A DNA stretch of 64,000 bases, taken from assembly GCA_963832745.1 (NCBI GenBank), contig CAWHVC010000004.1:167754-231753 (forward strand). Direction: 5' to 3'. Under the pieces are notes generated by a model. The model saw nothing but the letters and a program-made list of their open reading frames with translations. It did not search any database and was not told where the DNA came from. The first letter of the stretch is position 1. Each line of letters starts with the position of its first letter. Position numbers and translations under genes: made by a program. This DNA comes from Candidatus Bathyarchaeota archaeon. Lineage in GTDB: Archaea; Thermoproteota; Bathyarchaeia; Bathyarchaeales; Bathycorpusculaceae. Positions 1,883-43,003 of the stretch are shown here, one piece after another.

Positions 1883-1890
1883 GGGACAAT

Positions 1891-1978
1891 CGCTTCTAAG
1901 ATTGAGCATTTCACAAGTCGGGGTTTATTTATGTTTTCCAGAATCTGCCAGTTTAAGGTAAAATCTTCAGTGGAGCAA
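1891..1978. repeat. Duplicated 5' flank of the paralog genes, copy B
   Basis: See copy A at 251-338. Confidence 0.9.
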
Positions 1979-1989
1979 AGAAATAAGTG

Positions 1990-3486: not shown

Positions 3487-3575
3487 TGTGGTTCGCTTCT
3501 AAAGATAAGTGTTGTCTTGTTAAATAATTCTTTTCTATAAATCCCATATTTTTGGCAAAATAATGGAAAGGAAGG

Positions 3576-16501: not shown

Positions 16502-16503
16502 TT

Positions 16504-18033: not shown

Positions 18034-18136
18034 TTTAAGTGCGCCAAAGGGTACACAGCCGCTTGAGCAGCAAACGTTAATGCGGTACTTGTAGGCTCTT
18101 TGGAATTCTGTTTCTTGTTCTGCAATTTTTTGTATG

Positions 18137-18628: not shown

Positions 18629-18682
18629 ACATTGAAGCCTCCAATAAACAATTTCGATACTAGTATGCCAACATTTAATCTG

Positions 18683-18690
18683 ATATAAAA
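18683..18690 (-). promoter_or_regulatory. Candidate TATA box (minus-strand TTTTATAT) of the hox operon
   Basis: Lies about 55 nt upstream of the proposed TTG start of hoxE, followed by a GGAGG ribosome-binding site at 18638-18642. Confidence 0.35.
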
Positions 18691-18839
18691 GGTTACAGGA
18701 GCCAAGTTTCAACATTTAACGACAAATTTGCGCCAAAAACACTAGCTTCAACCAGAGTTGCATAACAAATGTCTAATGGACACAAGGAAGGTTGAAAAGT
18801 TTTTGATTGATATAAACTAAAATTGAAAATTTGGGGAAG

Positions 18840-23311: not shown

Positions 23312-23324
23312 AAGGATATCGCTT

Positions 23325-25517: not shown

Positions 25518-26101
25518 AGCTTGATGTTGTCTTTACAGGAGTCGGCGGTCAAGGCGTAGTGGTTTTAAGTGACATTTTCTGTGAAGCAGCCATGCTTGAC
25601 GGTTTCGACGTGGCTAAAGCAGAGATTCACGGCATGGCACAACGTGGCGGCTCAATTGTAGCTTTTGCACGGATAGCTGAAAAAGTTGAAACTCCTCTTA
25701 TTGAAACTGGCCAGGCAGATGCAGTTGTGGGTTTTGAAATTCTTGAAACCGCACGGTCGCTGCCTATGCTAAAACCAGCCGGTACAGTAATCGTAAACAC
25801 CAAATACATTGCGCCCAGCAGCTTTTCTAAAACAGTAAAACCGAAAACAGCACAGGAACTGCTTGACTTAATCAAAAGCCACGCTCAAATGGTTCATGAA
25901 GTAGACGGGTCAGGCATCGCAAAACAAGTGGGAAACAACTTGGTCGTGAACACCGTTTTGCTTGGCGCATTGTCAGCGTTGCCCACCATGCCGATTAAAC
26001 GTGAATCCTTTGAAACTGCAATGGCAGGACGGCTAAAAGAAAAGTATCTCCAAGTTAACCTGAAAGCTTTTGAACTGGGCAGACAAAGGGTATTGAAGTG
26101 A
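25514..26101 (+). CDS. iorB: Indolepyruvate:ferredoxin oxidoreductase beta subunit
   Basis: GVGGQGVVVLSD...EIHGMAQRGGSIV motif of the 2-oxoacid oxidoreductase gamma-type domain. 4-nt overlap with iorA. Confidence 0.85.
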   Translation: MKLDVVFTGVGGQGVVVLSDIFCEAAMLDGFDVAKAEIHGMAQRGGSIVAFARIAEKVETPLIETGQADAVVGFEILETARSLPMLKPAGTVIVNTKYIAPSSFSKTVKPKTAQELLDLIKSHAQMVHEVDGSGIAKQVGNNLVVNTVLLGALSALPTMPIKRESFETAMAGRLKEKYLQVNLKAFELGRQRVLK

Positions 26102-29173: not shown

Positions 29174-30778
29174 GTGCTAAACATGAACGCTGATGGCAAA
29201 AGATTCCGAGATGCAATAATCGAGTTTTTACCTGATGCCACGTTTGTCATCGATTTGGACGGTAAAGTCATTGCTTGGAACAGCGCTATGGAAATGCTAA
29301 CCAGCATTCCCCGAAGCGACATGCTTGGAAAAAGCAATTACGAATATGCCCTTCCATTCTACAAAGAACGCAGACCCATGCTGGCAAACCTAATTTTCTT
29401 GCCTCAAGTTGACTTTGAAACGAAATATGACTCTATAGAAAGAATCGGCGACGCGCTTGTTGTAGAAATTTATTTACCCGATTTTAGACCAGGCGGCGTA
29501 TACCTCTGGGCTAAAGCCAGTCCACTCTATGATTCACAGGGCGAAATCGTCGGTGCCATCGAAACAATCAGAGACATAACAGACCGGAAACGAGCAGAAG
29601 AAGAAATTATTCGATCACGCCGCAGTCTTGCAGACATTCTCAGCTTCCTTCCCGATGCCACGTTTGTCATCGATTTGGACGGTAAGGTCATTGCTTGGAA
29701 CAGCGCCATGGAAATGTTAACCAGTATACCTGCAGACTCCATGCTTGGAAAAGGTGACTATGAGTACGCAATCCCATTCTATAAGAAGCGGCGACCAATG
29801 TTGGCGGACCTAGTTTTCATGCCTGAAACAGAATTAAAAGAGAAATATAACAATGTTGAACGCAACATGGACACTCTTGTTGTCGATGTTTTTATTCCAG
29901 ATTTTCGGGTGGGCGGTGCCTACTTCTGGGCTAAGGCAAGTCCCTTGTATGACCCTAACAGTGGAAATGTAGTGGGCGCAATTGAAACAATCCGGGACAT
30001 AACCGAACGCCGAGAACTTGAAGGACGGCTTGCCCGTTCAAATGCCGAGCTACAGATTGCTGCAGAAATACAGAAAAGCTTTCTACCCGAGGCGATTCCT
30101 CAAATTCCAGGTTTTGATGTCGCAGCCCGCACCGTTATGGCAAAGGAAGTTGGAGGAGACTTCTTTGACGTAATCCCATATGAAGTTATGACTCTTGATA
30201 AGGGCATGCATGGCATGCTCGTCGCGGATGTATCGGGAAAAGGTGTTCCAGCAGCCCTCTTTATGGCGTTGTCAAGGATTGTTGTTCGAGTGAACGCTCT
30301 TTGGCATCATGACCCCGCGAAAGTAATTTACAGTTCCAACAACACCATAACCCAAGATTCAAAATCCGGCATGTTCGTAACCCTCTTTTTCGGACTGCTA
30401 AACGAGACAAACCGGTCCCTTACCTATGTTAACGCTGGACACAACCCGCCGCTAGTATTCCGGAGCCATGATGGGTCAGTTGAGAAGCTCATGCCTACAG
30501 GAATCGTGCTTGGGGCAGTCGAGAATTTGGAGTATAAGTCCAGAAGCGTAAAGATTGCGGAAGGCGACGTTGTTGTCATGTTTACCGATGGCGTTACGGA
30601 ATCAATCAATTCGCAGAGTGAACTGTTTGGAGAAAAGCGGCTTATAGCGGTTATTCAGAAAAACGCTGGCCTTTCGGCTCAGGGGATTCTTGAGCAGATT
30701 TTGGTTGAAGTAAACGCGTTTGCGGGAGATATGCCGCAGGCAGATGATATCACGTTACTTATTATCAAGGGGACCTGA
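29174..30778 (+). CDS. PAS-PAS-PP2C (SpoIIE/RsbU-type) serine phosphatase
   Basis: Two tandem PAS units (LPDATFVIDLDGKVIAWNSAMEMLTSIP twice), then the PP2C core AEIQKSFLP...EVGGDFFDV...VADVSGKGVPAALFMA...FTDGVTES...ADDITLL. Confidence 0.85.
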   Translation: MLNMNADGKRFRDAIIEFLPDATFVIDLDGKVIAWNSAMEMLTSIPRSDMLGKSNYEYALPFYKERRPMLANLIFLPQVDFETKYDSIERIGDALVVEIYLPDFRPGGVYLWAKASPLYDSQGEIVGAIETIRDITDRKRAEEEIIRSRRSLADILSFLPDATFVIDLDGKVIAWNSAMEMLTSIPADSMLGKGDYEYAIPFYKKRRPMLADLVFMPETELKEKYNNVERNMDTLVVDVFIPDFRVGGAYFWAKASPLYDPNSGNVVGAIETIRDITERRELEGRLARSNAELQIAAEIQKSFLPEAIPQIPGFDVAARTVMAKEVGGDFFDVIPYEVMTLDKGMHGMLVADVSGKGVPAALFMALSRIVVRVNALWHHDPAKVIYSSNNTITQDSKSGMFVTLFFGLLNETNRSLTYVNAGHNPPLVFRSHDGSVEKLMPTGIVLGAVENLEYKSRSVKIAEGDVVVMFTDGVTESINSQSELFGEKRLIAVIQKNAGLSAQGILEQILVEVNAFAGDMPQADDITLLIIKGT

Positions 30779-30826
30779 GCCTGTTATGTCAGAAGAAAAC
30801 CCTAAAAACCCTGGAAGGAGACAACC

Positions 30827-31252
30827 GTGAAAAGCTTTGAGCTTACCGTGGAGAGCAGGCTGGAAAGTCTTCCTAAGATAAGCGCGTTTATTGATGAAGC
30901 AATGCAGCACTATAACGTACAAAACGTAAAAGAAGTGTATGCAGTCCAGTTGTCGGTTGATGAAGCCTGCACTAACATAATTAAACATGCATACGCGAAC
31001 AAAAGCGATGGAAAAATTGTTATTCGCTGCACGCTGTGTAAGGCACCTGACAAGTTTGTAGTGGAAATAATGGATTGGGGTTGCCCTTTTGACCCAACAA
31101 CTCTGCCGACGCCTAATACGAAAAGCGGTTTGGATGAACGAAAGGAAGGCGGTTTGGGCATCTTTTTTATAAGAAAATTCATGGATGAAGTTAGCTATCG
31201 TAGAAGTGGCGATATGAATTTATTAACAATCGCCAAGTATATAAAAAAATAA
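30827..31252 (+). CDS. RsbW/SpoIIAB-type anti-sigma-like serine kinase (HATPase_c)
   Basis: N-box VDEACTNIIKHAY, G-boxes MDWGCPFDP and EGGLGIFFIRKFMD. 141 aa. Confidence 0.8.
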   Translation: MKSFELTVESRLESLPKISAFIDEAMQHYNVQNVKEVYAVQLSVDEACTNIIKHAYANKSDGKIVIRCTLCKAPDKFVVEIMDWGCPFDPTTLPTPNTKSGLDERKEGGLGIFFIRKFMDEVSYRRSGDMNLLTIAKYIKK

Positions 31253-31270
31253 TTACTGGAGAAAGAATAC

Positions 31271-31606
31271 ATGGAAACAAGGACAGAAGGAAATACAACC
31301 ATCGTAGTAATGGTTCCCAGATTCGACGCTTATACTGCCAATGACGTTGATACAGCATTAAAAGAGTTACTTGCGAAGGGCACCAAAAAAATAATCTGTG
31401 ATTTCTCCCAAACCGATTATGTAGCCAGTGCTGGCCTTAGGGTTCTTTTGTCTTCAGCTAAAACCCTGCAAAGGCAAGGCGGCCAAATTGTTTTATGCTC
31501 AATGAAACCTTACGTTCATGAAGTTTTTGAAATATCTGGGTTTACTCAGATTTTCAAAGTTTTTGAATCTAAAGAAGAAGCCTCTAAAAGCCTCAACCAA
31601 CCATAA
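31271..31606 (+). CDS. STAS-domain anti-anti-sigma-like protein (RsbV/SpoIIAA type)
   Basis: IICDFSQTDYVASAGLRVLL (phosphorylatable Ser context) and VHEVFEISGFTQIFKVFESKEEA. Confidence 0.8.
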   Translation: METRTEGNTTIVVMVPRFDAYTANDVDTALKELLAKGTKKIICDFSQTDYVASAGLRVLLSSAKTLQRQGGQIVLCSMKPYVHEVFEISGFTQIFKVFESKEEASKSLNQP

Positions 31607-31627: not shown

Positions 31628-32854
31628 ATGTCAACTATAAAGTCTGAAGCAGAACGATGCCTAAAATGCAAAGTGCCCAGCTGTTCCAAGGGTTGTCCTG
31701 TTGGAACTCCTATCCCTCAGGTTACGACAAAGTTCTTGGAAGGCAAATTGGAAGAAGCAGGCAGGCTGCTTTTCAACAACAACCCCCTATCCGCCATAAC
31801 CTCAATCGTTTGTCCGCATGACAGAAACTGCAAGGGTCACTGCATACTAAACAAGAAAGGTCAACCGGTTGAATTCTATAAAATAGAGCAATACATCTCA
31901 CGTTTCTATTTGGAAACCTTCCAGCCACCGCAGGTTGAGAGAAACGGCAAAAAAGTAGCAGTTGTAGGCGCTGGCCCAGCTGGAATAACAGCGAGCATAA
32001 TTTTAGCGAAAAAGGGTTATTCAATCACTTTATTTGAGGAAATGGACAGCATCGGTGGAGCCATGCGTTATGGCATTCCAGAGTTTAGGCTACCTAGAAG
32101 CATCTTTGAGTTTTACAGAAAAATTCTTGACTCTTTAAATGTTAAATTCCGTCCCAACACCCAGATAGGCACCAATTTTAGCGCTGAAGACATGTTTCTT
32201 GATGGTTATGACGCTGTCCTTATTTGCACGGGCACAAACCGACCGAACCGTTTCGGTCTTTTAGGTGAAACTTTAGGGCACGTGCATTTTGCTGTTGACT
32301 ACTTGAGGTCTCCTGACGTCTATAAGCTGGGAAAGAACCTTGTGATTCTTGGAGCAGGAAACGTGGCTATGGATGCCGCAAGAACCGCCATCAGAAAGCA
32401 ACACGTCGACGTTACCATTCTCAATTACAGGGCACCAGAGGATGTAACGGCAGATAAAGCGGAAGTGGAAATGGCAATGATTGACGGCGTAAAACTGCTT
32501 CATAACTGCCAAGTCGTCCGTATCATGGATAATTCTGTCAAGTGCGTAAAAGTTGATAAAATCATCGCTGAAGACGGTTCAGTGAGTATAAAAGAGGATT
32601 TTAAATCTGCGTTTGAATTACCTGCTGAAGCTGTAATTATTGCGATCGGTCAAGGTCCCGGTTCAGACGTAGTAAGCGTCGGAGGCGCCAAAGTCACACA
32701 GAAAGGACTTTTACAGGCGGACGAGTTTGGTCAAACGTCACAAGAAGGAGTATTCGCTGCAGGAGACGTCGTTACTGGCCCTAGAACGGTAATCGAAGCC
32801 ATTGCGTCCGCAAAAAAAGCATCAGAAAAAATTGAAGAATACTGTAGCAAATAA
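31628..32854 (+). CDS. GltD/PreT/NfnB-family NAD(P)H-dependent Fe-S flavoprotein oxidoreductase
   Basis: N-terminal Cys clusters (CLKCKVPSCSKGCP, CPHDRNCKGHC); dinucleotide folds KKVAVVGAGPAGITAS and LVILGAGNVAMDAA; GVFAAGDV. Confidence 0.8.
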   Translation: MSTIKSEAERCLKCKVPSCSKGCPVGTPIPQVTTKFLEGKLEEAGRLLFNNNPLSAITSIVCPHDRNCKGHCILNKKGQPVEFYKIEQYISRFYLETFQPPQVERNGKKVAVVGAGPAGITASIILAKKGYSITLFEEMDSIGGAMRYGIPEFRLPRSIFEFYRKILDSLNVKFRPNTQIGTNFSAEDMFLDGYDAVLICTGTNRPNRFGLLGETLGHVHFAVDYLRSPDVYKLGKNLVILGAGNVAMDAARTAIRKQHVDVTILNYRAPEDVTADKAEVEMAMIDGVKLLHNCQVVRIMDNSVKCVKVDKIIAEDGSVSIKEDFKSAFELPAEAVIIAIGQGPGSDVVSVGGAKVTQKGLLQADEFGQTSQEGVFAAGDVVTGPRTVIEAIASAKKASEKIEEYCSK

Positions 32855-33035: not shown

Positions 33036-34928
33036 ATGGAGTATGAAATCTTTCTGCTTCTTGCAGCCATCTTGCTAATCTTCTTAGATATAGCAGTTTT
33101 TTCAAGAACTAAATTTTCTTCTAACCGCTTAAATTATGCGGGCTTTATAGCGGCTGCATTTGCTTTCTTGTTGATATTAAGCTCTTACCTGTTGCTTTTG
33201 ATTGCTTTTGTGAATAACGACTTTTCATTTGTCGGCGTCTACTCTTTTAGCTCATCAAACTTGTCCCTGTTATCAAAAATTTACGCCAGCTGGGCAGGCG
33301 CAGGTGGTTCAATGCTTTTACTAACCATAATTTTAAGCACGTTCTATTTTGGGCTCAAAATTGCATCCTTAAAGAACACAGAGAAATTTAAAACACTAAC
33401 TTGTCAGGTAATGGGTTTTGTTGTTATTGTCTTTACATTGGTATGTTTACTGAGAAACCCCTTTGAACGACTTCCAGTAGCCGCTGTTGAAGGTTTTGGG
33501 CTTAACCCTCAACTGCAGAGTGTATGGATGGCTATTCATCCTCCAATTGTCTTTTCAGCTTACGCTTTTGTTGTACTTGCGTTTGCTTTGACAATTGCAA
33601 GTTTAAAAACCAACAAAGACATTGATACTTCAAAACTTTTCAAAGTATCAACTTATGCTTCTTGGATGCTGCTTACTGTTGGAATAGCTTTAGGCGGTGT
33701 TTGGGCGTATGAAGTTTTAGGTTGGGGTGGATATTGGGCTTGGGATCCAGTAGAAACAGCATCACTATTACCCTGGCTTATTTTAACAGGTTACTTTATT
33801 GTAAAATCTATTACAAAAAATCTAAGTCTTACTCGGGAAACACTGATTATGCTTACCTTTGCCAGTCTTGTTTTCCTAAGTGCCCTAACCCGTGGAGGGT
33901 TAACTCAATCTGTTCACTCGTATGCTGCCTCAGCAATTGGTCCAATAATGCTACTGTTTGCTGTAGGTATGATGGGTTACTTTTTTTACTTGGCAAAAAG
34001 CAAAAGGAAAAGTTTCTTCAAATTAACGGTTGACAGGAAATCTTTGACTTCCCGGTCATCTTTTGTTGGGTTTTGGGCGTTGATTTTTATTTCAATTGTG
34101 TGCTTGGTTGGGTTAGCTGTTCCGGATTTTGCTTACAGTTACTGGACTTATCCATTTGTCTTGTTGTTTGTTATATCGTTGGTTGGTTTCAGTCTTAACG
34201 ATAAAATGCATTATGCACGCCAATTCATAATCGTAACCGTAGGGTTGGTTGCTGGAGTTATTTTTACCTTGTTGGGTTTTGCTTCAGTAAATGTGCTTGT
34301 CACTTTAACTGTTCCTTTAATGGTTATAACCTTAGGTGCATTGTTCTACAAGCTCGCAACTTCGATAAGGCGACGAACTCTTCTTTGGCAATACCTTTTC
34401 GGTATAGCAGTTGTCGTGCTGCTTTTAGGCGTATTTGTAAGTTCAGGAGCCAAAACTTCTACAACACTTCAAAATGTTAACGTTAACTCTCCAGTACATG
34501 CTTCGGACTTAACGGTAACTTTAAGCGATTTGCATGTAAGCAACAGCACCACAAGGGTTTACAATACTCAAGTCGAAGGCGTTTTTCCTGAATATTCAAT
34601 TGTTACTGCAGATGTTTCTGTTCAGGGCTCTGGTTTAAATTATAACGGTAACTTGCAAGCGGCTTTCTATCCGAATTATGGATTAGTAATTAACCCCCTA
34701 ATTATCTCCACAATCACAGGTGACATTTACATTCATTTTGAATACACTGATTCACTTTACAACTCTTTAACTCAGAATTTGATTGGACAAAGTGTACTTC
34801 CCGACAATTTAGCATTAACTATCCAAAATAATCCATTGATTTACTTGGTTTGGGCAGGTGTGATTCTCATGTTGTTGGCATTGACTGCTGAGTTTATACT
34901 TGGAAATAAACAAACAATTAGCCTTTAA
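33036..34928 (+). CDS. ccmF: Cytochrome c maturation haem lyase CcmF (System I)
   Basis: W-rich motif WGGYWAWDPVETASLLPW, conserved His context AIHPPIVFSAYAF. Polytopic, 630 aa. Confidence 0.85.
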   Translation: MEYEIFLLLAAILLIFLDIAVFSRTKFSSNRLNYAGFIAAAFAFLLILSSYLLLLIAFVNNDFSFVGVYSFSSSNLSLLSKIYASWAGAGGSMLLLTIILSTFYFGLKIASLKNTEKFKTLTCQVMGFVVIVFTLVCLLRNPFERLPVAAVEGFGLNPQLQSVWMAIHPPIVFSAYAFVVLAFALTIASLKTNKDIDTSKLFKVSTYASWMLLTVGIALGGVWAYEVLGWGGYWAWDPVETASLLPWLILTGYFIVKSITKNLSLTRETLIMLTFASLVFLSALTRGGLTQSVHSYAASAIGPIMLLFAVGMMGYFFYLAKSKRKSFFKLTVDRKSLTSRSSFVGFWALIFISIVCLVGLAVPDFAYSYWTYPFVLLFVISLVGFSLNDKMHYARQFIIVTVGLVAGVIFTLLGFASVNVLVTLTVPLMVITLGALFYKLATSIRRRTLLWQYLFGIAVVVLLLGVFVSSGAKTSTTLQNVNVNSPVHASDLTVTLSDLHVSNSTTRVYNTQVEGVFPEYSIVTADVSVQGSGLNYNGNLQAAFYPNYGLVINPLIISTITGDIYIHFEYTDSLYNSLTQNLIGQSVLPDNLALTIQNNPLIYLVWAGVILMLLALTAEFILGNKQTISL

Positions 34929-34934
34929 TTTCTT

Positions 34935-35381
34935 TTAACCAAAGCTTAAGTGAAGCGCATAATACAGCAGCCCAAGTCCTAGAGATAACAACCAGATTGC
35001 CAATATTTTCCACATTAGCTTTTTTCTTGGAGCACAAAATTGTGTACTGCTTGATTCATTTATTGCCCAAACCCAAACAAGCCATACGCCCAAAATTAAT
35101 CCGACAGCTCCAATTACTCCATGAATTACGCCCATAGCAGCGACTATATTGAATGCGTTAAATGTTTCTGCGAAAGCAGAAACAAATGATGGCCCCATGT
35201 GCGAAAGTAACAGTAAAGCTGTGATTATCATAACAATAATCATTGAGTTGCCATGCCATACCGGTTTCCGTTTTTTTAATAGGTACAAGCTTAACCCTAT
35301 CAAAGCTAAAGCAACAAGAAAGATGACAACGTTTGTTTCTGCCATCCATTCGTGAACTACTTCAAATGAAACCATAAGCAA
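34935..35381 (-). CDS. Hypothetical 4-TM membrane protein
   Basis: Four hydrophobic helices. No family recognised. Confidence 0.5.
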   Translation of the reverse strand: MLMVSFEVVHEWMAETNVVIFLVALALIGLSLYLLKKRKPVWHGNSMIIVMIITALLLLSHMGPSFVSAFAETFNAFNIVAAMGVIHGVIGAVGLILGVWLVWVWAINESSSTQFCAPRKKLMWKILAIWLLSLGLGLLYYALHLSFG

Positions 35382-35513
35382 CCCCTTTCTGCTGCTTTAC
35401 CTTGTTAAATCCAGTTAATTTACTTTAAATTAGTCTTTGGCAATAGGTGCATTACTGAAAAGTTTTTTATAGTAAGTTAGCGTTTGGTAATTAAATCTAT
35501 TTTGTGGTAAGTT

Positions 35514-36944
35514 ATGTCTCAACCCCAAGACGCTAATGTAGTGGTTCCTGAAAAAATCGATTACAAAACTTCAGATTCAGTATCTAAATACTGGCTGTAC
35601 TCTGCTATACTATGGTTTCCAATTTTTGCCACTTTTGGCTTCATAATGGCAATCAAATTTTTTTATCCTACATTTCTAATCGATTCAGCTTTTGATACAT
35701 TTGGAAGAATCCGGCCAGCACACGTTAACGGGTTGCTTTTTGGCTTTTTATCTTCAGGCCTTATCGGCGCCATGTATTACGTTGTTCCCCGATTAAGCCA
35801 CGTATCTCTGTATAAGCCACAGATTGGAAAAATATCTGCTGTATTGTGGAATGTTGCGGTTTTAACTGGTGTGCTTCTCATTATGGGTGGGGATACTCAG
35901 GCTAGAGAATACGCCGAGATGCCTTGGATAATTGATGTTCTTGTAGTCATTACATTAATTCTAATAGGAATCACAATAATTGGAACAATACTGAAACGGA
36001 AAGAACGTAAACTTTATGTGAGTTTATGGTTTTTCGCGGCTATTTTCCTTTGGTTCCCCATAGTCTATTTCATAGGAAACGTAATGTGGAATCCTCCAAC
36101 AGGTGCACTTTATGGCTTAACAGACGCCATCGTCAACTGGTTCTACGGACACAACGTGTTAGGCTTATGGTTTACTCCTTTCGGGTTAGCTTTATGGTAT
36201 TACTTTATACCTAAACTTACTAAAAGAGCATTATACAGCGTAACATTATCGTTGATTAGCTTCTTTGCATTAGCGTTTTTCTACACTGGAGTTGGCGGTC
36301 ATCACTTGCTTCAATCCTCAATTCCTGAATGGCTAAAAACAATCGCTGTTGCAACAAGCGGTCTTATGATGCTTTCAGTTCTAACTTTCGCCACTAACAT
36401 AGGCATGACAATGCGTGGCGCTTGGCATTCATTTTTAAGCAATGTACCTTTAAGGTTCATTCTTTTCGGTTTTATCTGCTACATATTTGTCTCTATTCAA
36501 GGAACCTTTCAAGCACTTCGCGATATGAACCTCTACTTGCATTACTCTCAATGGACTGTAATGCATTCACATTTGGCATTATACGCATCATTCGGTATTA
36601 CCATAATGGGCATAATGTTCTACGTTATCCCAAAAATTTCCGGAAAACAGCTTTACAGCAAAAAATTGATGGATGTAACTTGGTGGGTTTCACTGCTTGG
36701 TTTTGTAATTTTCATGATGGGCATGTTACTGGCTGGATTAGTAGCTAACGCAGGTTGGTTTACAAGTCAAACAATAGCGCAAGTTTTGCCACTGCTCCCT
36801 CCTTACTTTATTATACGAGCAATAGGCGGCGGAATAGTTGTTGTATCTGCTTTCCTGTTCGCTATTAACATTATAATGACAATTTTGTCCAAACCAACAG
36901 GTGAAGAGTTGACTAAACAAACAATGGTGGTGCAGCAGGCATGA
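35514..36944 (+). CDS. ccoN: cbb3-type (C-family) haem-copper oxidase catalytic subunit CcoN
   Basis: RPAHVNG (haem b His), NWFYGHNVLGLWFT (compare CcoN WWYGHNAVGF), GVGGHHLL (CuB His pair), VMHSHLALYASFG (haem b3/b His pair). 12 TM, 476 aa. Confidence 0.85.
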   Translation: MSQPQDANVVVPEKIDYKTSDSVSKYWLYSAILWFPIFATFGFIMAIKFFYPTFLIDSAFDTFGRIRPAHVNGLLFGFLSSGLIGAMYYVVPRLSHVSLYKPQIGKISAVLWNVAVLTGVLLIMGGDTQAREYAEMPWIIDVLVVITLILIGITIIGTILKRKERKLYVSLWFFAAIFLWFPIVYFIGNVMWNPPTGALYGLTDAIVNWFYGHNVLGLWFTPFGLALWYYFIPKLTKRALYSVTLSLISFFALAFFYTGVGGHHLLQSSIPEWLKTIAVATSGLMMLSVLTFATNIGMTMRGAWHSFLSNVPLRFILFGFICYIFVSIQGTFQALRDMNLYLHYSQWTVMHSHLALYASFGITIMGIMFYVIPKISGKQLYSKKLMDVTWWVSLLGFVIFMMGMLLAGLVANAGWFTSQTIAQVLPLLPPYFIIRAIGGGIVVVSAFLFAINIIMTILSKPTGEELTKQTMVVQQA

Positions 36945-38527
36945 ATGGCTTCGAGAAAAAACTAGAAAAGAACTTTGAAAGAATAGAAAATGCTGTAACT
37001 AATCAAACAAAACATCGTAAAAAACTAAGCTTCAAAAATCTTTTCCCGTTAGTAGCTGGTGGGGTGGCTGTCTTCCTGCTTATGGTCAGCATGGTTGTAG
37101 TTGCTCCTTACATGTTCCTCTTAGATGTCCCCCCAACCGACACTGCACACGTTTACACCACGCAAGAAGCTGAAGGCAGAAGCCTTTACATGAGTTTAGG
37201 TTGCTTCTACTGCCATTCTCAACAAGTTCGAGCCTCTGACTGGGGACTAGGCAATGTTTCTCAAGAAGGCGACTACGTGTATGACAGCCCGAACTCTTTA
37301 GGAACAGAAAGAACTGGTCCTGACCTTGCTCAAATAGGCGGTATGCGTCCAACTGCTTGGCATCAAATGCATTATAGAGATCCAAGAAGCGTATCTCCCG
37401 GTTCAATAATGCCCAACTTTGAATTCCTAACAGACCAACAAATCGATTCCTTAATCACCTACATACAGAACCTCGGTCAAGAAAACCTACAAGTTCAACA
37501 ATCAATAACTAACGGCTCCGCCTATCACCCGGTAGTTCCTGAAGAATACATAAACGCAACCAACCAGTTTGAACCAATGTATCTAACCGTTTTATCACAA
37601 TATGATGCAACAAATGATGTTTACAATGGCAATGCCTCACTTGCAGATCAATGGGCTGCGATTTATGACGTTGCCAAAGCCGATTACACCCAACGATGCT
37701 TACCTTGCCATGGCTGCTCTGGAAATGCTCAGGGCCCATACGCTCGGCATGTGGTAACTCAACCCGCTAACCTGCATGAAAGAATCGCTACTTTTCCAGG
37801 TGATAACTATCATATCTGGCGAGTGAGTGAAGGTGTGCCTGGAACTGCAATGCCTGCATGGAAGCTTTCTCTAAACAGCACCGAGATTCAGTTAATCGCA
37901 ATTTACGAAATGAGCTTTGTTTTTGGTTCAGCAAGAACTTTTCCAGGAAGCACCTCAGACGATGAAGGCGACAATTACGCATTGACTGTTTTGAATACGC
38001 CGCCAATAAGCGGTACTCAGCAAGATTTCCAGTCAGGACAAGACATTTTTAATTTATACTGCGCTCAATGTCACGGTTCAGATGGTCAAGGTGACGGTCC
38101 AGCATCCATCAATGTTCCTGGCGGATATATCAGCCCTGCTCCAGCCAACTTTACAGAGTCAGGAAGCGACTTCCAATATTATGGCAGATACGTCTGGAAA
38201 GTAAAAGAAGGAGTAGAAACGACCAACATGCCACCATGGAAATACGCCTTATCAGACAACGAAATCTACCAAGCAGTCTTATACGTTCAAAGCTTTTCAA
38301 CAGCACAAGATTACAATTCAAAATGGGCACCACAATACACAGACCCCTATGCAAGAAACCTCAAGATTAACGCTGCATCAAGTAGCTTCACAAGTATAGA
38401 AACTAACCCTGTTGCCGTAATAGCGGTATTGTCCGCTGCTGTGCTTTGGAATCTGCAGGTAAATCGCCAAATTTTACGAACCAAAAATTTAACCTGTTTT
38501 TTACGTTTTAGGAGGAACCTGAAGTGA
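36941..38527 (+). CDS. Tri-haem cytochrome c: CcoO (FixO) domain fused to a CcoP-like dihaem domain
   Basis: ATGA overlap with ccoN. N-terminal TM. CcoO block GRSLYMSLGCFYCHSQQVR...GTERTGPDLAQIGGMRPTAWHQMHYRDPRSVSPGSIMPNF. Then CLPCHG...GTAMPAW and CAQCHG...TNMPPW, followed by a C-terminal hydrophobic segment. Confidence 0.85.
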   Translation: MNGFEKKLEKNFERIENAVTNQTKHRKKLSFKNLFPLVAGGVAVFLLMVSMVVVAPYMFLLDVPPTDTAHVYTTQEAEGRSLYMSLGCFYCHSQQVRASDWGLGNVSQEGDYVYDSPNSLGTERTGPDLAQIGGMRPTAWHQMHYRDPRSVSPGSIMPNFEFLTDQQIDSLITYIQNLGQENLQVQQSITNGSAYHPVVPEEYINATNQFEPMYLTVLSQYDATNDVYNGNASLADQWAAIYDVAKADYTQRCLPCHGCSGNAQGPYARHVVTQPANLHERIATFPGDNYHIWRVSEGVPGTAMPAWKLSLNSTEIQLIAIYEMSFVFGSARTFPGSTSDDEGDNYALTVLNTPPISGTQQDFQSGQDIFNLYCAQCHGSDGQGDGPASINVPGGYISPAPANFTESGSDFQYYGRYVWKVKEGVETTNMPPWKYALSDNEIYQAVLYVQSFSTAQDYNSKWAPQYTDPYARNLKINAASSSFTSIETNPVAVIAVLSAAVLWNLQVNRQILRTKNLTCFLRFRRNLK

Positions 38528-38676
38528 ATATTGACATGTTGATATATACTATAGGCGCTTTTCTCATTACTCTAATAACGGCTGGTTTTGTAGTTTGGGC
38601 TTTCAAGACTAAACAGTTTGAAGCCAACGACTTTTTACGTTACATGCCACTTGAGGAGGACGCAGACGAAGAATGA
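38524..38676 (+). CDS. Small single-TM protein, CcoQ/CcoS (FixQ/FixS)-like. Below the ORF-track size cut-off.
   Basis: AGGAGG at 38512-38517, then GTG 38524 (or ATG 38536). MLIYTIGAFLITLITAGFVVWAFKTKQFEANDFLRYMPLEEDADEE resembles the ...WA.k.GQ(F/Y)DD....R.l.DD pattern. Its stop overlaps the next start (ATGA). Confidence 0.6.
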   Translation: MNIDMLIYTIGAFLITLITAGFVVWAFKTKQFEANDFLRYMPLEEDADEE

Positions 38677-38963
38677 CGTGGCCATTTTACTTAACTGCAT
38701 ATATTGTCTATCTTGATCCAACTTACGTTTACTTTACGTTATTCTTAATTGCAGCAGTTTCAATTGTCATCTACTTAGTTGTCAGAAGTTCGAACGATTT
38801 CTCAGTTGAAGAGACCGAAAAAAACTCTGAAGATTTTGCCGGAGAAGTTCGTGACTCAAACGGTCCAGTGACCAAATGGCTCTGGGTAGTTTATGCTGGA
38901 TTAATAATTTGGGCATTAGCTTATTTGGTTCAGCATTGGAGCGAATTTGCGGTTTTCCCATAA
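38673..38963 (+). CDS. 2-TM protein resembling the N-terminal membrane domain of CcoP (FixP_N-like)
   Basis: GEVRDSNGPVTKWLWVVYAGLIIWALAYLV parallels the CcoP N-terminal motif DGI.E.DNPLPRWW...FYATI.fA.gY. Confidence 0.55.
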   Translation: MTWPFYLTAYIVYLDPTYVYFTLFLIAAVSIVIYLVVRSSNDFSVEETEKNSEDFAGEVRDSNGPVTKWLWVVYAGLIIWALAYLVQHWSEFAVFP

Positions 38964-39025: not shown

Positions 39026-40351
39026 TTGTTACGTTACTTTCAATGGTGTCCTTGTTTGGTTACTGAAAAAGTTACTCGATTTTACGGCTGCCAATTAACC
39101 ACTACTCATTCAGCAAAACAACATAAACTAAGCAAACTAATCGCTTGGCTTTCTGATAAAGAAGCGCCAGACCGAGAATTTATTTCTCTTTACATTCCCC
39201 CGCATATTTCAATAGAGCAAGTGGTAGCAAACATCAAAAAAGAAGCAGAATCAGCAGTTCTTGACTCAAAAAACGCTACTGACCGCCTACAAACCGCAGT
39301 AAAAAACATGCTCCAACATGTCAAAGCAAAAACTGAGTTGCCGGAAAACGGCTTAGCCATTTTTGCAGGAACTTTCCTTGGGAATAACCAAGATAAGCCT
39401 GTTTTAAACGTGGAAGAACTTGTTCCACCTCAACCGATTGCGACGTATCTTTGTAAGGCCGATAACCAGTTCGAGTTAGAACCACTGAGGCAAATGTTAA
39501 GAGATGAACGTATTATTGGTTTGATTTCGTTGGATTCTAAACAGGCAAGTTTTGGGTTGGTTGTAGGTGAACGTTTTGAGCCTCTGAAAAGCATTTCTTC
39601 GGGGGTTATGGGAAAAACTGGTAAGGGTGGCCAAAGCCAGAGACGCTATGAAAGGGAACGTGACATGTCTATCGGTTTCTTTTTTCGCCGAATCGCAGAG
39701 CACGCGACAAAAGAGTTTCTTGAAAACCGCAGCATTACCTTGCTAATAATCGGCGGGCCTGGACAAACAAAAAATGATTTTCTAAAAGGTGATTACCTAA
39801 ATTACATGTTAAAAGATGCTCTTTTTGGCATGTTTGACGTTCAATCAGCAGGTCCAGAGGGCGTCAGGGAAATTTTTGAAAAATCATCTGATAGCCTAAA
39901 AAATGTTTGTTTGCCGGTTGAGCGGAAAGTTATGCAGCGGTTACAGATTGAACTTAACAAGGATGCAGGGTTAGCCATAACCGGTTTAGACCCAGTGCTT
40001 GAAGGCTTAAAAACTGGCGAAGTTGAAGTGGCACTTGTCACGGACTCAACTGATCTGATACAAGCAGATGCTACATGCAAAAAATGTGGTTTAACAAAAA
40101 ATGAACTGCTGCATAAGTCATACATTCAGGGTCTGCAGGAGTTCCTTTCAACGCCCTGTACCCGTTGCAACGCAGTGGATTTCGAGTTGGCTGAAAAAGA
40201 CATCATCGACGTCTTAGAAGACTTGGCTGCACAAACAAAGGCAAGCGTTGAAGTGATATTTACAGGGTCAGACGAAAAGGCGCAGCTTACTACTCTGGGC
40301 GGATTTGCAGCTTTACTAAGATATCGCTCTAACAATGAGGGCCTAGCCTGA
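39026..40351 (+). CDS. prf1: aRF1/eRF1-family peptide chain release factor with divergent stop-codon-recognition motifs
   Basis: FISLYIPP, GKGGQSQRRYERER (GGQ at 39626-39634), C-domain with CxxC...CxxC mini-domain, C-terminal LGGFAALLRYR. The NIKS position reads LDSK. The start is uncertain (TTG 39026 or 39056). Confidence 0.75.
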   Translation: MLRYFQWCPCLVTEKVTRFYGCQLTTTHSAKQHKLSKLIAWLSDKEAPDREFISLYIPPHISIEQVVANIKKEAESAVLDSKNATDRLQTAVKNMLQHVKAKTELPENGLAIFAGTFLGNNQDKPVLNVEELVPPQPIATYLCKADNQFELEPLRQMLRDERIIGLISLDSKQASFGLVVGERFEPLKSISSGVMGKTGKGGQSQRRYERERDMSIGFFFRRIAEHATKEFLENRSITLLIIGGPGQTKNDFLKGDYLNYMLKDALFGMFDVQSAGPEGVREIFEKSSDSLKNVCLPVERKVMQRLQIELNKDAGLAITGLDPVLEGLKTGEVEVALVTDSTDLIQADATCKKCGLTKNELLHKSYIQGLQEFLSTPCTRCNAVDFELAEKDIIDVLEDLAAQTKASVEVIFTGSDEKAQLTTLGGFAALLRYRSNNEGLA

Positions 40352-40405: not shown

Positions 40406-43003
40406 TTAGGGTTTTCTGTAGAGTAATGCGCCGACTATTGCTACAACAACCATTACTGCTATACCCATAGCTACAATGGTCATTGTGTAGTCTGGTACCG
40501 AAATTTCCTGTTGCTGGCTTGATGGTGATGGTTGTGCTGCGCCTACCACTACTGAAGTTGATGCGGAAGAGCTGCCGTACGAGTCGTCGCCCATAAAGGA
40601 TACAATAATTTGGTAAGTTCCTTCCAAGTCTGGTGTCCAATCAATGCTGAAGGTTCCATAGTAACCGTTGGTTGTAACTTGGCCAATGTCTACTGTGTTT
40701 CCATTGGGATCAATAGCTGTGAGTATTACTTGAACGCCGTCTATTGTTTTATTATTCCAGATTCCGCCAATTGGGTACTGTAAATGCAAGTACTCCATTT
40801 GTGTCGACATTGAATCTGCAGAAACGCACGGTGTGCCTGGCTGCGCTGGTGACATGTCTAAAACAGTGCCCTTGATTACTACTCCGTTGCCTTTTGCAAT
40901 TACAATATCTGGAGCGGTTACGGTGGTTTGGGTTTCGCCTTTGCCGAAAACAAATTCATAGCCGTTTCTTGAGTCAGCTGCGGCCAAGTATCCATCTGCT
41001 AAACCGCCAATTGCCATGGGGTTTGCTATTCGCCAAATTAGCTCGCCAGTTGTAGCGTTGATGCATAAAGTTCCCCAACCTCTTGTCAAGGGTTGGCTTT
41101 CAGTATGTTCAGTGTTGTATGTGTACATTTTGCCATCCACAATCTGGGCGCCAGTATTAATCGAGTATACAGTTGTTCCGTTTTTGTCTGTGTAAGGGCT
41201 TTCGTACATACTTAATGCATAGTCAACGTAATGCCAAACTATGCTACCATCAGTCCAGTCAAAAGCGTAGACGCCGTCGTATGCTTCGCGGTATAACATG
41301 CCGTAAGCTGATTGTATAGCGTAGGCTCCGAATGCTGGCTCAGCCCATGGGTAATCCATTGCTTCACCTTTCCACGCTAGATTGCCTGTAGCTAAATCCC
41401 ACGCCATAAAGTATCCGCCCATCATCAGGACTGCCACTTTGCCATGATCAGCTACACACACTGTCATGCTGTAGCAAGTATCTTTAACGGTTGTGTTCCA
41501 AAGTACTGCTCCAGTGTATAGATTGAAGCCTACAACGTTTGTTCCATACCATGCGCCGACTTCCGGGGGTGTAAGTGACGTAACTGTTGCGCCATAACCT
41601 GTTTGCCAATCTATTAATGAAGGCAAACTAGCACTCGCATATGAGGTGTTGCTTATTATTCTTGAAGTAAAGTTAGTTGATGAACCTTTTGTAGTCCAGT
41701 TAATCAGCCGATAGTTAGGGTTAGCTGCGTTGCCAGCATTTTGGACACTTAAAACGTAGCCGTCCATCTGATTGTATAGTGTTCCACTGGTTAAAGGTGC
41801 AATTGAAGTATTGAGTGTCAAAGCGCCCGTGGCTGGATTCCATTTGTATAGACGACCGTTGCTTATTGTTAGCAACTCTATTGAGTAAGTTCCTACGGCT
41901 GCTGCTCCAGGTACTTCTAAGTTGCCACTTTGCGTGTAAACTATTGTGTTTGGCACTAAAGCAGTTGTGAACATCATTCCAAACATTGAAGCTGTCGTTG
42001 TTGCTGCAGGCTGTTCAAAGTAGACTTCTCCAGTGCGTAGATCACTACATCGCCAATATGTTGCCCCGTTTTCTCCAGGTTTAGTATAACTGTCATAAAC
42101 TTTTCCTGCATAAATCAAGTTAATGCTGCCGGGGCTGCTGGTTGTGGCTAAATTACCTGCTGGTCCACCGATTAAGCCTGCTATTGTATCTGAACGCTTC
42201 CAGACTATGTGCCCAGTTTCTGGTCCTTGAACCCATGGATGAAAATTGTATTGTGCACTCCACATTGGATTGGTGTCTGGGTAAAGCATGTCCCACATTG
42301 GACCGCCACCTTGATAGCCTGTGCCTGGATAGTTGCCAAGTATTGGCCACCATTCTCTATTTTCTAGTGCTACGGGTCTTGTCCAATAGTCTGTTGGTAA
42401 TGGTGATTCAGGCCATGGCCAAACTGGGTCTTCTTGTACTGTTAGGGTTTGTTCTGCAGTTGAGCTTGGTTCGTAGTAGCAATCTCCGTTGAAGCTTACA
42501 TAGCCTGAACCGAAAACTGCTCCTGGGTCTGCTGTGTAGTTTCCTGCCGGGAAGTATCCGCCTGGGAATTCAAATTTAAGTTTCCATTCACCGAGTTGGT
42601 CTGGTGCAAATTCAAACCAAGCGGTAGTGTCAGCTTCATAAGAATCCATCACTCTTACGTCTGTGTGTCCTTGGGGGTCTGTGATTGTCACTTTGTAATC
42701 TGACATGTATCGGCTAACATGTGTTGCTGGGTTAAGCCAAACGTTGACTAGGACTGTTTGGCCTTTGCCGACTGGGTTTGGTCTAAAGCTTAGAAACGCG
42801 TGAGTTTCAATGGTTACGTCTGGAGTTATGCCTGATGCTAAGGGTCCTGGTATTGAACCGCCTTCTTGCAAGTTTGTTGGTGTAACGCCGGGTGGTAAAA
42901 AGGTTGATTGTGCTTGTGCTGGCGTTAACATTGCTATGGAGGAAATGATGAGAATTGCGGTGATAATCATTGAAAAGGTTGCTTTTTTGATAATTTTCTG
43001 CAT
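40406..43003 (-). CDS. Large secreted surface protein with a PQQ-like (BamB-type) beta-propeller and C-terminal TM anchor
   Basis: Signal peptide MIITAILIISSIAMLTPAQA. Repeated propeller motifs (DGVYAFDWTDGSIVWHY, YFMAWDLATGNLAWKG, LCINATTGELIWRI, VGFNLYTGAVLWNT). C-terminal TM IVAMGIAVMVVVAIVGALLY-RKP. Confidence 0.75.
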   Translation of the reverse strand: MQKIIKKATFSMIITAILIISSIAMLTPAQAQSTFLPPGVTPTNLQEGGSIPGPLASGITPDVTIETHAFLSFRPNPVGKGQTVLVNVWLNPATHVSRYMSDYKVTITDPQGHTDVRVMDSYEADTTAWFEFAPDQLGEWKLKFEFPGGYFPAGNYTADPGAVFGSGYVSFNGDCYYEPSSTAEQTLTVQEDPVWPWPESPLPTDYWTRPVALENREWWPILGNYPGTGYQGGGPMWDMLYPDTNPMWSAQYNFHPWVQGPETGHIVWKRSDTIAGLIGGPAGNLATTSSPGSINLIYAGKVYDSYTKPGENGATYWRCSDLRTGEVYFEQPAATTTASMFGMMFTTALVPNTIVYTQSGNLEVPGAAAVGTYSIELLTISNGRLYKWNPATGALTLNTSIAPLTSGTLYNQMDGYVLSVQNAGNAANPNYRLINWTTKGSSTNFTSRIISNTSYASASLPSLIDWQTGYGATVTSLTPPEVGAWYGTNVVGFNLYTGAVLWNTTVKDTCYSMTVCVADHGKVAVLMMGGYFMAWDLATGNLAWKGEAMDYPWAEPAFGAYAIQSAYGMLYREAYDGVYAFDWTDGSIVWHYVDYALSMYESPYTDKNGTTVYSINTGAQIVDGKMYTYNTEHTESQPLTRGWGTLCINATTGELIWRIANPMAIGGLADGYLAAADSRNGYEFVFGKGETQTTVTAPDIVIAKGNGVVIKGTVLDMSPAQPGTPCVSADSMSTQMEYLHLQYPIGGIWNNKTIDGVQVILTAIDPNGNTVDIGQVTTNGYYGTFSIDWTPDLEGTYQIIVSFMGDDSYGSSSASTSVVVGAAQPSPSSQQQEISVPDYTMTIVAMGIAVMVVVAIVGALLYRKP

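Follow-up and report, generated by a model that had tools for sequence, protein, structure and literature searches.

A predicted six-gene module for a divergent cbb3-type oxygen reductase in the Bathyarchaeia

The window considered here is a 64-kb stretch of DNA from a Candidatus Bathyarchaeota archaeon, and this report is concerned with the interval 33036-38963 within it, which carries the genes of a cbb3-type (C-family) haem-copper oxidase. An earlier account made from the letters alone (the sequence-only reading) had described the interval as a cbb3 operon with a gene for the haem lyase CcmF upstream of it; ORF reading found all of the open reading frames (ORFs) and motifs that it quoted at the positions it had given. 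The interval is a seven-part module, consisting of six genes and a divergent gap that is a putative promoter, and it is not a canonical ccoNOQP operon. Its parts are the following.

33036-34928, plus strand: CcmF/NrfE-family cytochrome c haem lyase-like protein, 630 aa (PF01578, TIGR00353, TIGR03145)
34935-35381, minus strand: DUF420/CtaM-like four-helix membrane protein, 148 aa (DUF420, AlphaFold)
35382-35513, no strand: divergent intergenic (putative promoter) region between the DUF420-like gene and ccoN (sequence reading)
35514-36944, plus strand: CcoN, subunit I of a C-family haem-copper O2 reductase, 476 aa (COX1, TIGR00780, PDB CcoN chains)
36941-38527, plus strand: CcoO fused to two CcoP-like cytochrome c domains (CcoO-P), 528 aa (FixO, two copies of Cytochrome_CBB3, TIGR00782)
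38524-38676, plus strand: CcoS (FixS)/CcoQ (FixQ)-like single-helix ORF, 50 aa (weak FixQ and FixS matches, family matches)
38673-38963, plus strand: two-helix membrane protein, probable homologue of the CcoP N-terminal hairpin (FixP_N), 96 aa (FixP_N under cutoff, family profile)

The oxidase subunits

CcoN has all four of the signatures, RPAHVNG, WFYGHNVLG, GGHHLL and MHSHLALY, on which its C-family assignment had first been made. It matches Pfam COX1 at 1.8e-78 and the CcoN chains of solved cbb3 structures at 5e-67 to 1e-55 (about 1e-67 for 3mk7 and 9g6b), as against 5.5e-9 for NorB of the cNOR-type nitric oxide reductases (NORs) and about 1e-9 to 1e-11, over partial alignments, for subunit I of the ba3 and A-type (CtaD) oxidases. 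The match to TIGR00780 ccoN is 7.1e-82, and its 275.8 bits are under the equivalog cutoff of 583.15. Identity to canonical genome ccoN (Polaromonas, Gemmatimonas), a measure in which the PDB chains are not included, is 33-37%. Because it is so far under the cutoff and so distant from canonical ccoN, the protein is placed in a divergent subfamily.

The residues of the active site were followed in an alignment of 70 sequences, which consisted of the window protein, 51 members of its clade, 16 other C-family proteins and two NorB from plasmid nor operons. Six histidine ligands (H70, H213, H263, H264, H351 and H353), which align with H60, H207, H257, H258, H345 and H347 of Pseudomonas stutzeri, are invariant in all 68 C-family sequences, and so is the cross-link tyrosine, Tyr257 of helix VII, which is a serine in NorB. 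This tyrosine lies six residues before H263/H264 (YxxxxxHH), a spacing that matches Y251/H257/H258 of P. stutzeri, and there is no tyrosine at H213+4 (GHNVLG), the helix VI position of the A/B-family. We take the C-type proton channel to be made up of T215, Y223, S240, N289 and Y317 of P. stutzeri. The channel residues of the window protein, T221, Y229, S246, N295 and Y323, are likewise invariant in 68 of the 68 C-family sequences, and NorB has L, F, Y, a gap and F in their places. CcoN has, then, the ligands for haem b and for the haem b3-CuB centre with its tyrosine, together with the proton channel. Two substitutions, E323->Q and H243->S (P. stutzeri numbering), were considered as clade-specific active-site changes and were dropped, as the canonical Polaromonas and Gemmatimonas CcoN carry Q and G.

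A phylogeny against the NORs had been proposed as a check. In a distance-based neighbour-joining tree (70 sequences, 458 columns, 100 bootstraps), on which the branching statements below also rest, the window protein is inside the C-family, which is split from NorB at 100% bootstrap over a long branch. The cNOR (NorBC), qNOR, NOD and putative N2O reductase families belong to the same superfamily branch and share with cbb3 oxidases the histidine ligands and a cytochrome c second subunit, but they are without the cross-link tyrosine and the cytoplasmic channel, and the window CcoN has both. Characterised NORs carry FeB, with an extra glutamate ligand at the site. The NOR-type and putative N2O-reductase families are defined by the loss of the cross-link tyrosine (Murali et al. 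2024, PMC11214002), so the retention of Tyr257 excludes them. We identify CcoN, from its residues and its place in the tree, as a true C-family (cbb3-type) haem-copper O2 reductase and not a NOR.

The second gene overlaps the first in an ATGA (start at 36941, ccoN end at 36944), in agreement with the translational coupling described earlier. The CcoO/FixO block that had been noted in its product, CFYCHSQQVR, GTERTGPDLAQIGG and WHQMHYRDPRSVSPGSIMPNF, is present, and Pfam FixO matches residues 42-177 at 3e-35 (122 bits, cutoff 29.6); against TIGR00781 the CcoO region reaches 109.6 bits, under the cutoff of 200.65. Absent from the first account were two extra cytochrome c domains in the same polypeptide. 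Two copies of Cytochrome_CBB3 match C-terminal of FixO (3.6e-23), and the fusion protein also matches TIGR00782 ccoP at 1.7e-15. PDB CcoO chains match at about 1e-23 and PDB CcoP chains at 6e-6 to 2e-5 over residues 353-453.

The three CxxCH motifs of CcoO-P, at 88, 253 and 374, provide for three haems c and are kept in all of the Bathyarchaeia loci. The protein has an N-terminal membrane anchor, the CFYCH motif with the methionine of GSIMP, and a hydrophobic, basic C-terminal tail that is specific to the Bathyarchaeia. It is the sole CxxCH protein, and so the sole c-type cytochrome, in the window and in nearly all of the related loci.

Two small genes follow. The 50-aa ORF was previously unlisted and came to light on reading a 145-bp 'gap' after CcoO-P. 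Its GTG start, with AGGAGG 9 nt upstream, overlaps the stop of the fusion gene (GTGA), and its own stop overlaps the next ATG (ATGA). The window copy matches FixQ at 9.3e-4 and FixS at 0.039, both under the Pfam cutoff. Among 20 orthologues, 18 match FixS (best 5.4e-10) and 9 match FixQ (best 4.7e-7), and on this account we consider the ORF to be of the FixS/FixQ kind. An orthologue occurs at the same position in every clade locus where the gap was examined, and the ratio of nonsynonymous to synonymous divergence (dN/dS) is 0.05-0.16 where computable.

The 96-aa protein, which the sequence-only reading had left uninterpreted, matches FixP_N at 5.6e-4, under the Pfam cutoff, and 6 of 20 orthologues match it (best 1.5e-5). 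When the family profile was compared with PDB, the CcoP chains 8snh_G, 8smr_G and 3mk7_C were among the four best hits, over residues 6-76 and with weak E-values of 0.036-0.54. D61, which is a glutamate in other lineages, aligns with a glutamate of the CcoP motif IEEYDNPLP. In Vibrio cholerae and P. stutzeri, this glutamate is placed at the entrance of the proton channel. The gene is kept 3' of the oxidase across the whole clade, its dN/dS is 0.09-0.18, and oligo-T runs lie 3' of its stop.

The four genes from ccoN to the 96-aa ORF are thus joined by the overlaps ATGA, GTGA and ATGA. Since the 50-aa ORF is CcoS/CcoQ-like and the 96-aa ORF CcoP-hairpin-like, their order, N - O - (S/Q) - P, is that of canonical ccoNOQP, except that CcoO has taken over the cytochrome domains of CcoP and that the small peptide appears to be closer to CcoS than to CcoQ. 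A canonical CcoP consists of a hairpin and a dihaem cytochrome c in one polypeptide; the cassette has both parts, rearranged. Compared with the CcoNOQP enzymes of P. stutzeri (3mk7/5djq) and Pseudomonas aeruginosa (8smr/8snh), the CcoN fold, ligands, cross-link position and channel residues are alike, and so is the haem c complement of one CcoO-type and two CcoP-type haems. What differs is the fusion of the CcoP domains to the C-terminus of CcoO, the hairpin as a separate 96-aa gene, the lack of ccoGHI and the archaeal host. The cbb3 operon of the sequence-only reading therefore holds as to the C-family oxidase and does not hold as to a standard operon, given the fused CcoP domains, the separate hairpin and CcoS/CcoQ-like peptide, and scores under the cutoffs.

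The accessory genes and the putative divergent promoter region

The gene that runs divergently from ccoN, which the sequence-only reading had passed over, encodes a protein whose match to DUF420 (PF04238) is 2.4e-4 and 21.8 bits over a full-length alignment, under the cutoff of 30.5. DUF420 was matched by 4 of 14 homologues at E <= 0.01 (best 2.6e-5) and no other family was matched; in a database search with the family profile some members came with a precomputed PF04238 assignment and the JGI name 'YozB (DUF420 family)'. AlphaFold predicts the protein with confidence as a four-helix bundle (pLDDT 88.6), and a Foldseek search of the model against PDB gave generic helical bundles only, with no E < 1. 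The family has invariant or near-invariant His, Met and Cys residues, and its gene always adjoins the cassette in the Bathyarchaeia.

DUF420 is CtaM, which is needed for the assembly of functional aa3 and caa3 oxidases in Staphylococcus aureus and Bacillus subtilis and for which copper trafficking has recently been proposed (PMC4958251; PMC13344008); DUF420 is also related to half of haem A synthase (PMC8239418). The window protein resembles CtaM in being a four-helix membrane protein with conserved histidines and a genetic tie to a haem-copper oxidase. It differs in that CtaM has been linked so far to the A-family aa3 and caa3 enzymes, whereas the oxidase of the cassette is C-family and the match is weak. 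No described link between DUF420 and a C-family oxidase was found in the literature searched. We regard the protein as a candidate assembly factor for CuB or the oxidase.

At the 5' end of the interval lies the CcmF-like gene, which is syntenic with the oxidase in 23 related loci. Its product matches PF01578 Cytochrom_C_asm at 7.3e-30, PDB 6zmq CcmF at 4.6e-36 and TIGR00353 CcmF/NrfE at 1.8e-51 (175.7 bits, cutoff 569), and TIGR03145 aligns over the full length (residues 7-615 to model positions 10-625 of 631). In comparison with CcmF of Escherichia coli and Thermus thermophilus (6zmq), it has the full-length NrfE/CcmF architecture, the WWD motif (WGGYWAWDPVE) and both periplasmic histidines, H168 and H294, but it is without the transmembrane histidine pair that ligates the b-haem and has no adjacent CcmABCE(H). 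The position of transmembrane His1, aligned to 'LHTAF' of T. thermophilus, is I or V, and across 19 Bathyarchaeia homologues H168 and H294 are the only invariant histidines; we therefore consider the protein an atypical CcmF. No ccmABC(D)E(H) partners occur in the window or in the +/-10-kb flanks of the 23 loci. The System I haem lyase proposed earlier thus stands as a CcmF-family gene linked to the oxidase; an operating System I is putative only, since the b-haem histidines are missing and no other ccm gene is nearby.

The region 35382-35513, between the divergent genes, is predicted to function as a promoter. A TATA-like element, TTTTTTATA, lies at 35463-35471, 43 nt 5' of the ccoN ATG, and 13 Bathyarchaeia loci have an A/T-rich TATA-like block about as far from the gene. 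A search for regulatory motifs and palindromes 5' of ccoN in 14 loci found this A/T block as the only conserved feature.

Distribution, host and neighbouring genes

In a homologue scan of one genome per GTDB species, the closest relatives of CcoN, at 74-89% identity, came from about 22 metagenome-assembled genomes (MAGs) labelled Candidatus Bathyarchaeota, Bathyarchaeia or 'uncultured archaeon', many of these loci being on long-read contigs of 0.2-2.7 Mb. In 23 Bathyarchaeia loci the cassette is the same, with the CcmF-like and DUF420-like genes, CcoN, CcoO-P and the 96-aa ORF. Its flanks differ among genomes, and the gene clusters common to at least 20 loci are those of the cassette only, with the release factor gene aRF1 adjoining again in locus L014. 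The Bathyarchaeia CcoN are monophyletic with 97% support, and the window protein is inside the group. Between cassettes dS is saturated, and omega is below 0.2 wherever computable, the two small ORFs included. Pairwise distances of the five larger genes correlate with one another (r = 0.79-0.95), which indicates that the cassette has been inherited as a unit.

The most divergent Bathyarchaeia cassette, at L015 (CcoN 64% identity), has its CcmF-like gene (L015:19630-21371, minus strand) displaced about 5 kb downstream, where it adjoins multihaem cytochromes with 12 and at least 5 CxxCH; this hints at extracellular electron transfer in that lineage. One Bathyarchaeia MAG contig, CAVZJV010000014.1, carries two whole cassettes, L020 and L057, at about 1.46 and 2.27 Mb and so about 0.8 Mb apart. 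The CcoN matches of both are split at one point into two high-scoring segments, probably through long-read indel errors.

More distant CcoN homologues, of 53-57% identity, occur in the Methanoperedenaceae (13 sequences, 100% clade support), in ANME-2 and Methanolobus and in anaerobic bacteria. The ANME-2 and Methanolobus proteins are nested with one from a Clostridia MAG (support 90-100%), and they include that of M. vulcani PL-12/M, which is in culture; the bacterial relatives are Dehalococcoidales and other Chloroflexota, Clostridia including Desulfosporosinus, Syntrophales and Thermoleophilia. All of these sequences and those of the Bathyarchaeia fall into one 'anaerobe clade' of moderate support (64%). 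The statement that cbb3 oxidases are essentially confined to Bacteria does not survive this distribution, which takes in about 22 species-level Bathyarchaeia genomes as well as Methanoperedenaceae, ANME-2 and Methanolobus.

In these more distant relatives the subunits are joined. In M. vulcani PL-12/M (L053:6605-9559), Methanoperedens, Dehalococcoidales, Clostridia and Syntrophales, single CcoN-CcoO-cytochrome c polypeptides of 880-985 aa match NCBIfam PRK14485 'bifunctional subunit I/II', score 273-293 bits against TIGR00780, and share with the Bathyarchaeia the three haems and the same downstream CcoS-like and hairpin-like ORFs. The Bathyarchaeia differ from them in that N and O are separate, coupled genes and that the CcmF-like and DUF420-like genes are added. 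In the Clostridia members L033, L036, L050 and L058 (~13.2-16.3 kb) the fused oxidase is followed by DUF4399 and the System II genes ResB and ResC. As these parallel the Bathyarchaeia CcmF, a cytochrome c maturation gene that travels with the oxidase is a recurring theme. In M. vulcani the gene directly 3' of the oxidase cassette (L053:10055-12502) encodes an 815-aa homologue of the P3-type plant/fungal plasma-membrane H+-ATPases (PDB 5ksd, 6e-186). This gene had been a candidate for the Cu-ATPase CcoI and was rejected as such, the pump being P3-type H+-ATPase-like.

Outside of the anaerobe clade, the symbiotic plasmid pSymA of Sinorhizobium meliloti (L083:3471-6947) has a divergent ccoN-like gene of 479 aa, which the tree places among the remaining C-family lineages, a 554-aa CcoO-cytochrome c fusion named 'subunit II' and a 74-aa ORF, so that the split architecture of CcoN and a long CcoO also exists in cultivated bacteria. 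It differs in its 33% CcoN identity and in being followed by TauE/SafE and a P-type ATPase, with no CcmF or DUF420. This locus sits besides the canonical fixNOQP copies on pSymA and is an apparently unstudied cbb3 variant of split architecture.

Two further features of the window bear on the host and its metabolism.

39026-40351, plus strand: aRF1 (TIGR03676 at 8.4e-98, above cutoff)
13820-18715: HoxEFUYH-type NAD-linked [NiFe] hydrogenase

The archaeal flanks and the aRF1-like gene described earlier are both confirmed, the latter by its TIGR03676 match and the former by ribosomal proteins S19e and L31e, eIF6, a GTPase of the signal recognition particle receptor type and prefoldin; MetRS and CysRS are also among the archaeal genes of the window. 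Translated from its first start codon, aRF1 has about 30 extra N-terminal residues relative to TIGR03676, so that translation probably begins at a later start codon. The window and L014 share only 58% identity in their syntenic aRF1, as against 84% in CcoN. The NAD-linked hydrogenase that had been mentioned is present as a HoxEFUYH-type set. Other window genes of the anaerobe type encode 2-oxoacid:ferredoxin oxidoreductase, ADP-forming acyl-CoA synthetase and Hdr-like proteins, and there is in addition a peroxiredoxin.

That the oxidase region might be a bacterial fragment mis-assembled or mis-binned into an archaeal contig would be suggested by a family that is overwhelmingly bacterial and by the GC content of the cassette, which at 38-44% is slightly under the window mean. 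Archaeal informational genes, however, lie on both flanks within the 64 kb, and the tetranucleotide profile shows no break (the cassette has r = 0.943, and 6-kb windows across the sequence have 0.947 +/- 0.016). About 22 independent Bathyarchaeia MAGs have the same cassette within contigs of 0.2-2.7 Mb, once more beside aRF1 in L014, and its CcoN form a deeply diverged group. Given the saturated dS, the correlated distances, the 97% monophyly, the matching tetranucleotides and this recurrence in Bathyarchaeia contigs, a chimera or a recent transfer is effectively excluded, and the mis-assembly explanation is refuted in practice. The sequence-only reading was right in this respect. The parent contig, of 267.6 kb, most likely belongs to the Bathyarchaeia, as judged from the oxidase phylogeny and the synteny of the cassette.

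Several neighbours of the cassette are worth recording. Directly 5' of a GltD/NfnB-like NAD(P)H oxidoreductase (31628-32854) and of the cassette, 29174-31606 (plus strand) encodes a PAS-PAS-SpoIIE/PP2C phosphatase (534 aa), an RsbW-like protein (141 aa) and a STAS protein (111 aa), labels given from a reading of the three sequences. By its look this trio is a partner-switching module of the bacterial style, and its adjacency to the cassette is not kept in related loci. On the other side, 40406-43003 (minus strand) encodes a secreted protein of 865 aa that combines a PQQ-like beta-propeller with an Ig-like domain and has a membrane anchor at its C-terminus; paralogues at a distance of 24-39% identity lie near the cassette in L002, L005, L012, L013 and L057.

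Farther away, the ADP-forming acyl-CoA synthetase (18840-21677, minus strand, 945 aa) has a fused C-terminal GNAT acetyltransferase domain and is adjoined at 21992-26101 by an AMP-binding enzyme and the 2-oxoacid:ferredoxin oxidoreductase, which is of the indolepyruvate type. Between the ribosomal protein genes and eIF6, at 7214-8103 (plus strand), the 3' end of a gene for a KaiB-domain protein (129 aa) overlaps one for a PAS-domain protein (184 aa), an unusual site for an archaeal KaiB-like gene. Three tandem genes at 359-5147 (minus strand; 516, 498 and 523 aa) are without a Pfam match; the first two are paralogues of 59% identity with an N-terminal hydrophobic anchor or signal, and the set looks like a lineage-specific family of secreted or surface proteins.

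Function and significance

We consider it probable that a Bathyarchaeia genome here encodes a divergent cbb3-type cytochrome c:O2 oxidoreductase, in a module that is functional and self-contained. In the mechanism that we envisage, electrons would enter through the three c-type haems on one extracytoplasmic polypeptide, made up of CcoO and the two CcoP-like domains, and would pass to CcoN, which would hold haem b and the haem b3-CuB centre, where the His-Tyr cross-link would serve the four-electron reduction of O2. Substrate protons would be taken up through the conserved C-family channel, the entrance of which the 96-aa hairpin protein may complete. The CcmF-like lyase would attach the three haems c, the CcoS/CcoQ-like peptide may stabilise or mature CcoN, and the DUF420/CtaM-like protein may support the assembly of CuB or of the oxidase; the last two might also help in cofactor or copper insertion in place of the missing ccoGHI. 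In this manner, otherwise fermentative soil archaea that depend on hydrogenase and ferredoxin would most likely consume traces of O2, by which O2-sensitive enzymes would be protected and some membrane potential gained.

A number of points weigh against this interpretation. All of the subunits are far under the NCBIfam equivalog cutoffs, the window copies of the three small families (50-aa, 96-aa and DUF420-like) are each under the Pfam cutoff when taken alone, and in the hairpin and DUF420 families most of the scanned members do not reach E <= 0.01. The CcmF-like protein is without the transmembrane b-haem histidines that the canonical mechanism needs. Genes for ccmABCE, ccoG/H/I and the biosynthesis of haem or quinones were not seen in the 64-kb window, and a ccoGHI(S) assembly cluster is neither in the window nor conserved beside the cassette in related loci. 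As for an electron donor, no bc1 complex, alternative complex III, soluble cytochrome c or cupredoxin was found in the window or conserved beside the cassette. Clustering of the flanking ORFs of 23 Bathyarchaeia and 35 other loci gave no linked donor either, the recurring extras being only ResB/ResC/DUF4399 (Clostridia) and an ABC ATPase. The surrounding metabolism, with 2-oxoacid:ferredoxin oxidoreductase, Hox hydrogenase and Hdr-like proteins, is typical of anaerobes, and C-family oxidases also reduce NO in vitro (PMC11214002).

With no electron donor found, the high-affinity microaerobic respiration claimed earlier was overstated. What the sequences show is the identity of the enzyme, its set of ligands, the anatomy of its subunits, their conservation under selection and the archaeal host. 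We infer that in vivo the enzyme would reduce O2 to water with high affinity, in an electrogenic and energy-conserving manner, and the roles given above for the three small proteins and CcmF are put forward on the same footing. Since the surrounding genes are of the anaerobe type and the relatives are in obligate anaerobes, we hold O2 scavenging that brings some gain of energy to be likelier than a life that is fully aerobic.

The oxidase could instead be a purely protective O2 scavenger that makes no meaningful contribution to energy or growth, the hosts remaining obligate anaerobes, and we regard this as a serious possibility, although not the likelier one. Cytochrome bd oxidases are thought to be protective O2 scavengers in some methanogens. 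Close relatives of the cassette are found in obligate anaerobes (Methanolobus including the isolate M. vulcani, Methanoperedens, Dehalococcoidales, Syntrophales and Desulfosporosinus), ferredoxin-dependent enzymes that are sensitive to O2 are encoded in the window, as is a peroxiredoxin, and no dedicated donor complex is linked to the cassette. There is also a published precedent in the anaerobe Scalindua, which is reported to use cbb3 for O2 scavenging (PMC13253579). What speaks for some energy gain is the cytoplasm-facing proton channel, which is fully conserved, so that turnover should be electrogenic, and a (micro)aerobic way of life has been suggested for soil Bathyarchaeia (PMC10321748, PMC12694404). 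That six genes are maintained at a cost, by strong purifying selection, fits either role.

Two other functions were weighed, and both appear to be very improbable. The absence of a linked donor complex, the soil or sediment habitat and the position of CcoO-P as the only c-type cytochrome of the window and nearly all related loci would agree with an outward triple-haem subunit that takes electrons directly from Fe(II) or reduced humics, that is, with a minimal chain from a lithotrophic or extracellular donor to O2 in cells that have no outer membrane; the multihaem cytochromes beside the CcmF of L015 point in the same direction. This proposal is purely inferential, however, no Cyc2-like or cupredoxin gene was seen, and donor genes may lie elsewhere in the genomes. 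Improbable to a similar degree is a physiological reductase or detoxifier of NO or another N-oxide. The cNOR, qNOR and putative N2O-reductase families do branch near the C-family, C-family enzymes have NO reductase as a side activity in vitro (PMC11214002), and several hosts, e.g. Methanoperedens, handle nitrogen oxides. Against it, neither the cross-link tyrosine, whose loss defines the NOR and N2O-reductase families, nor the CuB-type three-His site varies, none of the channel positions is shared with NorB, the match to NorB (5.5e-9) is far behind that to CcoN (1e-67), the bootstrap split of 100% runs over a long branch, and there are no nir, nor or nos genes in the window.

The classical view is that cbb3 is a bacterial invention, and the Bathyarchaeia are as a rule regarded as strict anaerobes. 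That C-family oxidases occur sparsely among archaea has already been mentioned (Murali et al. 2024, PMC11214002). Hou et al. 2023 (PMC10321748) reported unspecified 'cytochrome c oxidases' in the soil Bathyarchaeia genus Houtuousia, which they and a 2025 review likened to those of Sulfolobus, suggesting a (micro)aerobic lifestyle; the 2023 account implies an A/B-family type. The archaeal A/B-family oxidases (SoxM/SoxABCD, ba3) and the cassette enzyme would both be archaeal terminal haem-copper oxidases and part of a proposed (micro)aerobic adaptation of soil Bathyarchaeia, but in the cassette the second subunit is a cytochrome c and not a CuA subunit, and haem A is not required. In open-access full texts we found no description of a C-family oxidase in Bathyarchaeia, Methanoperedens or Methanolobus, or of this cassette, an absence that is not proof. 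Proteins of the clade are in public databases, some of them automatically annotated as 'cbb3-type subunit I/II'. The cassette is therefore not the first archaeal cbb3; it is widespread, though undescribed, in public archaeal genomes. We expect the fresh aspects to be the rearranged subunit architecture, a CcmF without b-haem ligands and the link to DUF420, with enzyme chemistry that is conventional.

In a broader proposal, which we put forward as tentative and on balance rather doubtful, the whole soil Bathyarchaeia clade performs energy-conserving microaerobic respiration by means of this compact, long-retained six-gene cbb3 module with its unconventional maturation set (the CcmF lacking b-haem, a CtaM-like factor for a C-family enzyme and the CcoS-like peptide), within an old 'anaerobe clade' shared with Methanolobus, ANME-2 and Methanoperedenaceae. 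If this were true, 'anaerobic' archaea would have turned repeatedly to high-affinity respiration of O2, a trait that has been overlooked so far. As one of the relatives sits in a cultured methanogen, M. vulcani, the function of the clade is open to experiment. Two biochemical leads come from the CcmF, which has no b-haem ligands, and from the DUF420/CtaM-like protein, with its tie to an oxidase that lacks haem A. The occurrence of C-family oxidases in at least three archaeal groups bears on the 'purely bacterial' view of cbb3 and on the dating of haem-copper families by their archaeal distribution. For the Bathyarchaeia themselves, a conserved oxidase under selection in about 22 soil lineages suggests the use of, or a defence against, traces of O2, and this would bear on the interpretation of their niche in soils that are aerated periodically.

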